Of a stretch of DNA of 64,000 nucleotides, positions 44,839 through 45,482 are shown piece by piece (position 1 is the first letter of the stretch; each line of letters begins with the position of its first letter). Source of the stretch: an uncultured Bacteriovoracaceae bacterium (GTDB lineage Bacteria; Bdellovibrionota; UBA1018); contig CAYHPW010000001.1 of the NCBI GenBank assembly GCA_964358645.1, forward strand, positions 62,264 to 126,263, in the 5' to 3' direction. The position numbers and the translations under genes were made by a program. The notes below the pieces were generated by a model. That model had not been told where the DNA came from. It saw only the letters and a program-made list of their open reading frames with translations, and made no database searches.

Positions 44839-44849
44839 TGTTTACTTCC

Positions 44850-45480
44850 AATAAAATTCCATTTTCTGTTGAAGCAATAAACATTTGCTAGTTTGTACTA
44901 GGTAAAAAATTTCTTCTCTCACTATCTAGTTCTGCTGAAAAATCGTCTAGTAGGAAGATTGGTTACTTCCCTGAAAATGTCTATTTCACTAAGTTTCAAA
45001 GCAAGGAGTACCGAACGAATTTCTCCTTGGGATGAATAGCCTTTCAAAGATCATTTGTTAGCTAAAAATAATAACTTATCACGGTGTGGTCCAACTAACG
45101 TATGACCTATCCTTCTCTATGTTTCCTCAAAAAATGAACCCCTATTAAAAAACTCCCTTCCTATTTTTTTAAATGAAGGTATCTCATTGTGTCCAGTAAA
45201 ATGTTCCATATTTAATCCCTTCTCTTTTAGTGCTTAACTCACCATGTATGGAACATTTATTCTTTAAAATTCAGCTCAATCTCCTCTGTTTTTTTGTTTA
45301 TTATACCAGTTAGCTTGTCTTGCTAGGTTATCCTTTTTAAAACTATTTTACTTCCACTTTTAATAAGCAGTTCGGTAATTGAGTCTATTAAGTTTTAGGA
45401 AATATTTTTTTAAAAAATGGTCCTACCCCACCGGCTCAACTGCCGTGGTCTTACACCAATCTGGTAATTTTTTTATTCCA
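44850..45480 (-). pseudogene. recF: recF remnant (frameshifted/truncated) in the canonical dnaN-recF-gyrB position
   Basis: No ORF of 60 aa or longer on either strand across a 644-bp gap. Hand translation of the minus strand gives YSSQGEIRSVLLALKLSEIDIFREVTN (RecF signature region) in one frame and LLDDFSAELDSERRNFL (RecF Walker B, LLLDDVFSELD) in a second frame. Stops follow both. Confidence 0.6.
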
Positions 45481-45482
45481 AT

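Follow-up and report, generated by a model that had tools for sequence, protein, structure and literature searches.

Remains of a decayed recF gene between dnaN and gyrB in a deep-branching member of the Bdellovibrionota

The window, by which we mean the whole 64-kb stretch of DNA analysed, carries 53 tightly packed ORFs that cover ~95% of its length, and neighbouring genes frequently share a few bases. Within it an intact dnaN and an intact gyrB are separated by a spacer of 644 bp in which the longest ORF is 41 aa. The gyrB stop codon overlaps the start of fabH, and gyrA lies after fabH. The features of the locus are as follows.

45483–46589, minus strand: dnaN, encoding the DNA polymerase III beta clamp, intact, 368 aa, with Pfam DNA_pol3_beta domains
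44839–45482, minus strand: the whole dnaN-gyrB spacer, read here as a recF pseudogene remnant, 644 bp, 32.8% GC
42403–44838, minus strand: gyrB, intact, 811 aa, 75–80% identical to relatives over its full length
41390–42406, within 38871–44838: fabH, flanked by gyrB and gyrA, with stop and start codons that overlap

An earlier note on this DNA had pointed out that the recF slot between dnaN and gyrB lacks any ORF of 60 aa or longer, and had read RecF hallmark peptides (YSSQGEIRSVLLALKLSEIDIFREVTN and LLDDFSAELDSERRNFL) in two separate frames of the minus strand. Both peptides are present as described. A translation stitched from the two frames matches NCBIfam TIGR00611 with an E-value of 7.6e-24 over profile positions 249–337 of 339; its score of 84.5 bits, the best of any stitched translation, does not reach the curated cut-off of 172 bits. 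Against solved RecF structures the best match is 2o5v (E 5e-13), with residues 81–159 of the query corresponding to chain residues 232–314. The signature and the Walker B/D-loop align to the matching region of this structure, yet they lie in different frames. Pfam SMC_N matches the stitched translation weakly.

We also built a lineage RecF profile of 409 positions from the intact RecF proteins of 12 related loci. Searched with hmmsearch, this profile matches the relic at positions 188–387 in three collinear pieces, and the first of these (segment A) is collinear in frameshift-aware alignments as well. The similarity to RecF that the earlier note had left to a translated search is therefore strong, whether TIGR00611, the lineage profile or 2o5v is used. 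The segments and the motifs still legible in them are:

45269–45409, minus strand: segment A (helical arm region), profile positions 188–234, 11 bits, E 2.5e-5 for three frames
44961–45254, minus strand: segment B, profile positions 247–344, 91.6 bits, E 8e-30
44855–44974, minus strand: segment C, profile positions 344–387, 36.7 bits, E 4e-13
45078–45092, minus strand: GPHRD motif in segment B, readable in translation
45021–45035, minus strand: signature motif SSQGE in segment B, within YSSQGEIRSVLLALKLSEIDIFREVTN, readable in translation
44942–44959, minus strand: Walker B IFLLDD in segment C, within LLDDFSAELDSERRNFL, readable in translation

RecF (TIGR00611; structures 2o5v, 5z67–5z69 and 8a8j) is an SMC/ABC-type ATPase of the RecFOR RecA-loading system. 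The relic is homologous to it over ~188–387 and shares with the family the GPHRD, SQGE and FLLDD motifs as well as the canonical dnaN-gyrB location. However, it differs from functional RecF in lacking both an intact ORF and the Walker A/N-terminal half. An uninterrupted RecF ORF of ~340–460 aa is absent, and the reading frame is broken by six or seven in-frame stops, with TAA, TAG and TGA all represented, and by two frameshifts. These lesions were mapped by frameshift-aware alignment to three intact relatives, and their coordinates were rechecked in translation:

45410–45482, minus strand: 5' stretch after the dnaN stop, 73 nt, without significant RecF similarity (no profile match), covering most of the GGVGPFFKK peptide discussed below
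45410–45412, minus strand: further stop TAA, just upstream of the supported RecF homology
45395–45397, minus strand: in-frame stop TAA, segment A
45323–45325, minus strand: in-frame stop TAG, segment A
~45258–45261, minus strand: frameshift of segment B relative to segment A
45234–45236, minus strand: in-frame stop TAA, segment B
45117–45119, minus strand: in-frame stop TAG, segment B
45051–45053, minus strand: in-frame stop TGA, segment B
~44963, minus strand: frameshift of segment C relative to segment B
44888–44890, minus strand: in-frame stop TAG, segment C

Segment C also has a deletion of four codons after RRNFL, and other small indels occur in the relic. In most relatives an intact recF is ~1215–1270 bp long, compared with 644 bp here, so that ~570–625 bp are missing. 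RecF profiles find nothing in the 73–98 nt downstream of the dnaN stop, and upstream of position 188, where the N-terminal Walker A P-loop (GxNGxGKT) would lie, the profile has no match. Because nothing is detectable upstream of that position, the missing part corresponds to the N-terminal ~175–187 codons, Walker A included. These comparisons indicate a deletion of the N-terminal ATPase half, not its degradation beyond recognition. No RecF ATPase can be made from what is left.

The earlier note had recognised a trace of Walker A in the peptide GGVGPFFKK (45406–45432). This reading does not hold, as the peptide is indistinguishable from shuffled sequence, and it adjoins the segment aligned to RecF 188–234 but is out of frame with it. 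When the 98 nt that follow the dnaN stop were compared with RecF residues 1–190 of 12 relatives, the best local score was 29, compared with a shuffle mean of 29.2, and 53% of the shuffles score at least as high. A PSSM of the conserved YQxxLxQRNxLL motif gives scores within those of shuffles. A collinear, in-frame match of the form KNYQ..R to the YQxxLxQRN motif (RecF position ~175) is likewise at chance level, and the 5' deletion endpoint is for this reason uncertain, falling somewhere between RecF codon ~175 and codon ~187. A search for direct repeats that could have mediated the 5' deletion gave nothing beyond short two-copy repeats, no more than chance would produce.

The DnaN protein is 63–69% identical to DnaN of the Bdellovibrionota/Oligoflexia, its best matches being 67% in GTDB species genomes and 69% among 5.8 billion proteins, whereas the DnaN proteins of these relatives are 72–93% identical to one another. 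The lineage therefore sits on a long branch, and the organism branches deeply within the Bdellovibrionota/Oligoflexia. We examined 14 related loci in this group, comprising twelve clade loci from a GTDB DnaN search and the two closest DnaN matches, and all 14 carry an intact recF (362–462 aa) between dnaN and gyrB. The recF slot measures 1089–1389 bp in these relatives and ~1215–1270 bp in the ten closest, and the end of recF adjoins or overlaps the start of gyrB. Synteny is conserved over the genes for an acyl-CoA dehydrogenase, methylmalonyl-CoA mutase and a B12-binding protein, followed by dnaN, recF, gyrB, fabH and gyrA. Since every relative examined has an intact recF, the gene has been lost specifically in this long-branch lineage.

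Several other loci recovered with these searches deserve mention. Adjacency of gyrB and fabH is also found in the loci of seven relatives (including L005, L007, L008, L011, L027 and L028). In more distant Thermodesulfobacteriota/delta-proteobacterial MAGs (loci L013–L019) gyrB comes after dnaN without an intervening recF, as in the window, which indicates that recF is not universal in this slot. However, the gaps between the dnaN and gyrB matches in those loci are ~60–320 bp and contain no RecF match, whereas the window has 644 bp of decayed recF. In the locus of a Bdellovibrio sp. MAG (JACPOE010000066.1, positions 8320–13101 of L001) the gyrB match falls into three pieces separated by gaps of ~1.2 kb and 1.7 kb, which are probably inteins inside GyrB. 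A contig of a MAG labelled 'Candidatus Poribacteria bacterium' (L029; GCA_038060675.1, JBBTGI010000034.1) is near-identical to the window from mnmE to dnaN and ends inside dnaN. The same assembly has a 1970-bp contig that bears part of a GyrB, again near-identical. Since the neighbouring genes are Bdellovibrionota-like, this assembly seems to be mislabelled or wrongly binned.

Taken together, the strong homology, the intact recF at the syntenic position in relatives and the multiple independent disabling lesions identify the 644-bp spacer, almost certainly, as a decayed remnant of recF that descends from the RecF family without being a functional member of it. The ancestor had the order usual in the clade, dnaN-recF-gyrB-fabH-gyrA, with the end of recF adjoining or overlapping the start of gyrB. 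In this lineage recF has lost its 5' 175–187 codons, and the 3' remainder has gathered six or seven nonsense codons, along with two frameshifts and a number of small indels.

The identity of the pseudo-RecF to its relatives (37–45%) can be compared with the 44–49% expected for an intact orthologue, a value extrapolated from a linear fit of RecF to DnaN identity among the relatives. The relic is thus only ~5 points under the expectation for an intact orthologue at such divergence. As a rough estimate from sequence divergence, this suggests that recF was constrained over most of the long branch and was inactivated relatively late. For dating the loss we looked for closer relatives, and no DnaN above 69% identity exists among the 5.8 billion proteins searched.

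The lesions could in principle be errors of sequencing or assembly, at homopolymers for example, in an organism whose recF is intact. The region is AT-rich with runs of A and T, and GCA_038060675.1, a second MAG assembly, is interrupted within dnaN and again within gyrB, so that the stretch is hard to assemble there. However, the exact DnaN sequence occurs on three separately assembled contigs derived from Hainich groundwater data (ENA ERZ1292640, named Hain_H43_02um; ENA ERZ1292638; and Logan ERR3858133), whose flanks show at most one difference from the window in 7–15 kb. All three have the same uncalled 644-bp gap, and its 644 bases are identical in each. This identity, which spans at least two samples and two assemblers, excludes assembly error, the outcome that the earlier note had said would overturn its reading. 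In addition, six or seven of the lesions are stops of the substitution type, of all three kinds, rather than homopolymer indels, and they are accompanied by two frameshifts and by the outright absence of ~570–625 bp of the gene. We consider the probability of an artefact to be negligible. We give just as little credence to a recF that still functions by recoding, whether through a reassigned stop codon, programmed frameshifting or split polypeptides. The readable GPHRD, SSQGE and IFLLDD motifs are what such a gene would show, but all three stop codons are found in frame, the 53 neighbouring ORFs covering ~95% of the window are normal under table 11, and the longest ORF in the spacer, at 41 aa, begins with TTG. 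The absence of the Walker A half also means that no ATPase could form.

Two further explanations accept the decay of this copy and concern what surrounds it. The function of RecF may be kept by a non-orthologous recF elsewhere in the genome that made this copy redundant. Redundancy is a common route to pseudogenisation, and the neutralisation of a redundant recombination gene has been described (PMC4224334), although nothing in our data points to it directly. Among 5.8 billion proteins, including those of the same Hainich assemblies, a search that depends on shared 5-residue words found no RecF more than 57% identical to the relic, and we regard a second copy as very improbable. The relic may instead have been co-opted as a regulatory leader, as an internal gyrB promoter or as a small-peptide gene (ORFs of 41 aa and 26 aa). 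Co-option would account for the survival of 644 bp in a genome that is otherwise compact, with many gene overlaps and with most intergenic gaps below 100 bp. The 26-aa ORF (44804–44884) spans the gyrB start, and the 3' end of the spacer holds a Shine-Dalgarno-like site for gyrB:

44845–44849, minus strand: GGAAG, the Shine-Dalgarno-like site, 6 nt before the gyrB ATG (44836–44838)

This site falls within the last recF-derived bases. Relatives have GAAGG there instead, equally far from the gyrB start and within the final codons of recF. However, a crude scan of the minus (coding) strand of the spacer revealed neither promoter-like nor terminator-like sites, and the best promoter-like site, TTGTTA-17-TATAAT at 47021–46993, lies upstream of dnaN. 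An Rfam search of the spacer gave no family match, and the fold after dnaN is not unusual (z = -1.5). An internal gyrB promoter in the relic was accordingly rejected for want of a consensus-like minus-strand site in the scan. We likewise discarded an intrinsic terminator or structured RNA in the GC-rich block at 45420–45460, which has the same z of -1.5, no terminator-like site and no Rfam match. By eye, the small ORFs are not preceded by Shine-Dalgarno-like sequence, the decay of RecF similarity roughly matches neutral drift, and there are no closer relatives in which conservation could be compared. On this evidence co-option is unlikely, if somewhat less so than a second recF.

The decayed remnant is probably a transcribed but untranslated spacer of a dnaN-gyrB-fabH-gyrA operon, as judged from the lack of promoter-like or terminator-like sites within it. 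Read-through from promoters upstream of dnaN would transcribe the relic, which presumably yields no product of its own. Its last bases include the gyrB ribosome-binding site, which is probably the reason for their retention.

The earlier note had also taken the decay of recF as a sign of reductive evolution, and this is not what the window shows. The DNA is ~95% coding, and the recF remnant is its sole pseudogene; no other gene relic was found in gaps longer than 300 bp. A second candidate pseudogene at 50429–51217 proved to be an intact gene for an enoyl-CoA hydratase. The intact genes include:

25214–28915: mfd, intact
33395–35917: uvrA, intact
56106–57587, plus strand: dnaA, intact

Also intact are nrdJ, mnmG, rsmG, mnmE, yidC, two complex-I-type operons and a beta-oxidation cluster. 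Neither recO nor recR lies inside the window. The overall GC content of 40.6% is inside the range of relatives (36–58%), whereas the spacer (32.8%) and dnaN (30%) are lower; the long DnaN branch and the low GC of dnaN fit faster evolution without proving it. The complex-I-type (nuo-like) genes form two consecutive sets on the minus strand within 1–24924, with NuoD homologues at 12804–14006 and 22823–23956, and a 622-aa member of these sets (18565–20433) has no NCBIfam match at E 1e-10.

The region upstream of dnaN has features of its own. A 542-bp intergenic region of 22% GC (46590–47131) contains 8 of the 33 DnaA-box-like sites of the window (TTATCCACA, at most one mismatch), located between 46602 and 47099, and is a candidate oriC or a candidate DnaA-controlled dnaN promoter. 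The dnaA gene is 9.5 kb from dnaN on the opposite strand and adjoins yidC and mnmE (52147–57587). The minimum of the cumulative GC skew is near 52 kb, not at the DnaA-box cluster by dnaN. A bipartite origin and a single exact origin position are both candidates. Positions 45483–48000 form an island of low GC content (30.4% in dnaN and 30.6% in the bin 46001–48000, compared with 40.6% in the window). The dnaN of relatives lies no more than ~5 GC points below its own locus, and in two of them it is slightly above.

Loss of recF has precedents. Host-restricted bacteria with reduced genomes, intracellular symbionts among them, are textbook cases of losing recF or recA. Nearly all intracellular bacteria studied have eliminated recA or recF (PMC2246100), and the gene lost by mutational decay in those symbionts and pathogens is the same. 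However, the organism described here is uncultured and comes from groundwater metagenomes, and its ~95% coding window, with no other pseudogene, gives no sign of general erosion. Taylorella and Achromobacter also lack recF at the locus, according to the passage of PMC3590767 that cites Sakai and Cox 2009; as presented in that passage the gene is simply absent, whereas the organism of the window retains a datable relic. The same passage infers that bacteria without recF use RecOR. With recF absent from its locus, the organism would presumably load RecA at gaps through RecOR without RecF, by analogy with other recF-less bacteria. The suggestion in the earlier note that RecFOR-dependent gap repair may be altered is thus reasonable. 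A literature search for the phrase 'recF pseudogene' returned no match.

The locus is one more case of a known kind of recF loss, somewhat unusual in that it affects an environmental lineage with a compact, intact-looking genome segment. Such a loss is ordinary, it would not surprise a specialist, and it opens no long-standing question. Its significance is mainly a matter of annotation, as the locus should be recorded as a recF pseudogene and not as intergenic DNA or small ORFs. The lineage-specific loss also adds a non-symbiont example to the known dispensability of RecF, and it predicts RecF-independent (RecOR) loading of RecA in this organism. We tentatively suggest, as a possibility that we hold to be less than even, that the locus represents a natural and fairly recent knockout of RecF in an environmental, possibly predatory member of the Bdellovibrionota with an otherwise compact and repair-competent genome, the relic being kept in a tightly packed operon near the origin as a required leader and ribosome-binding region for gyrB. 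If this is true, the organism would show, as a natural experiment beyond host-restricted bacteria, whether RecOR can do without RecF.
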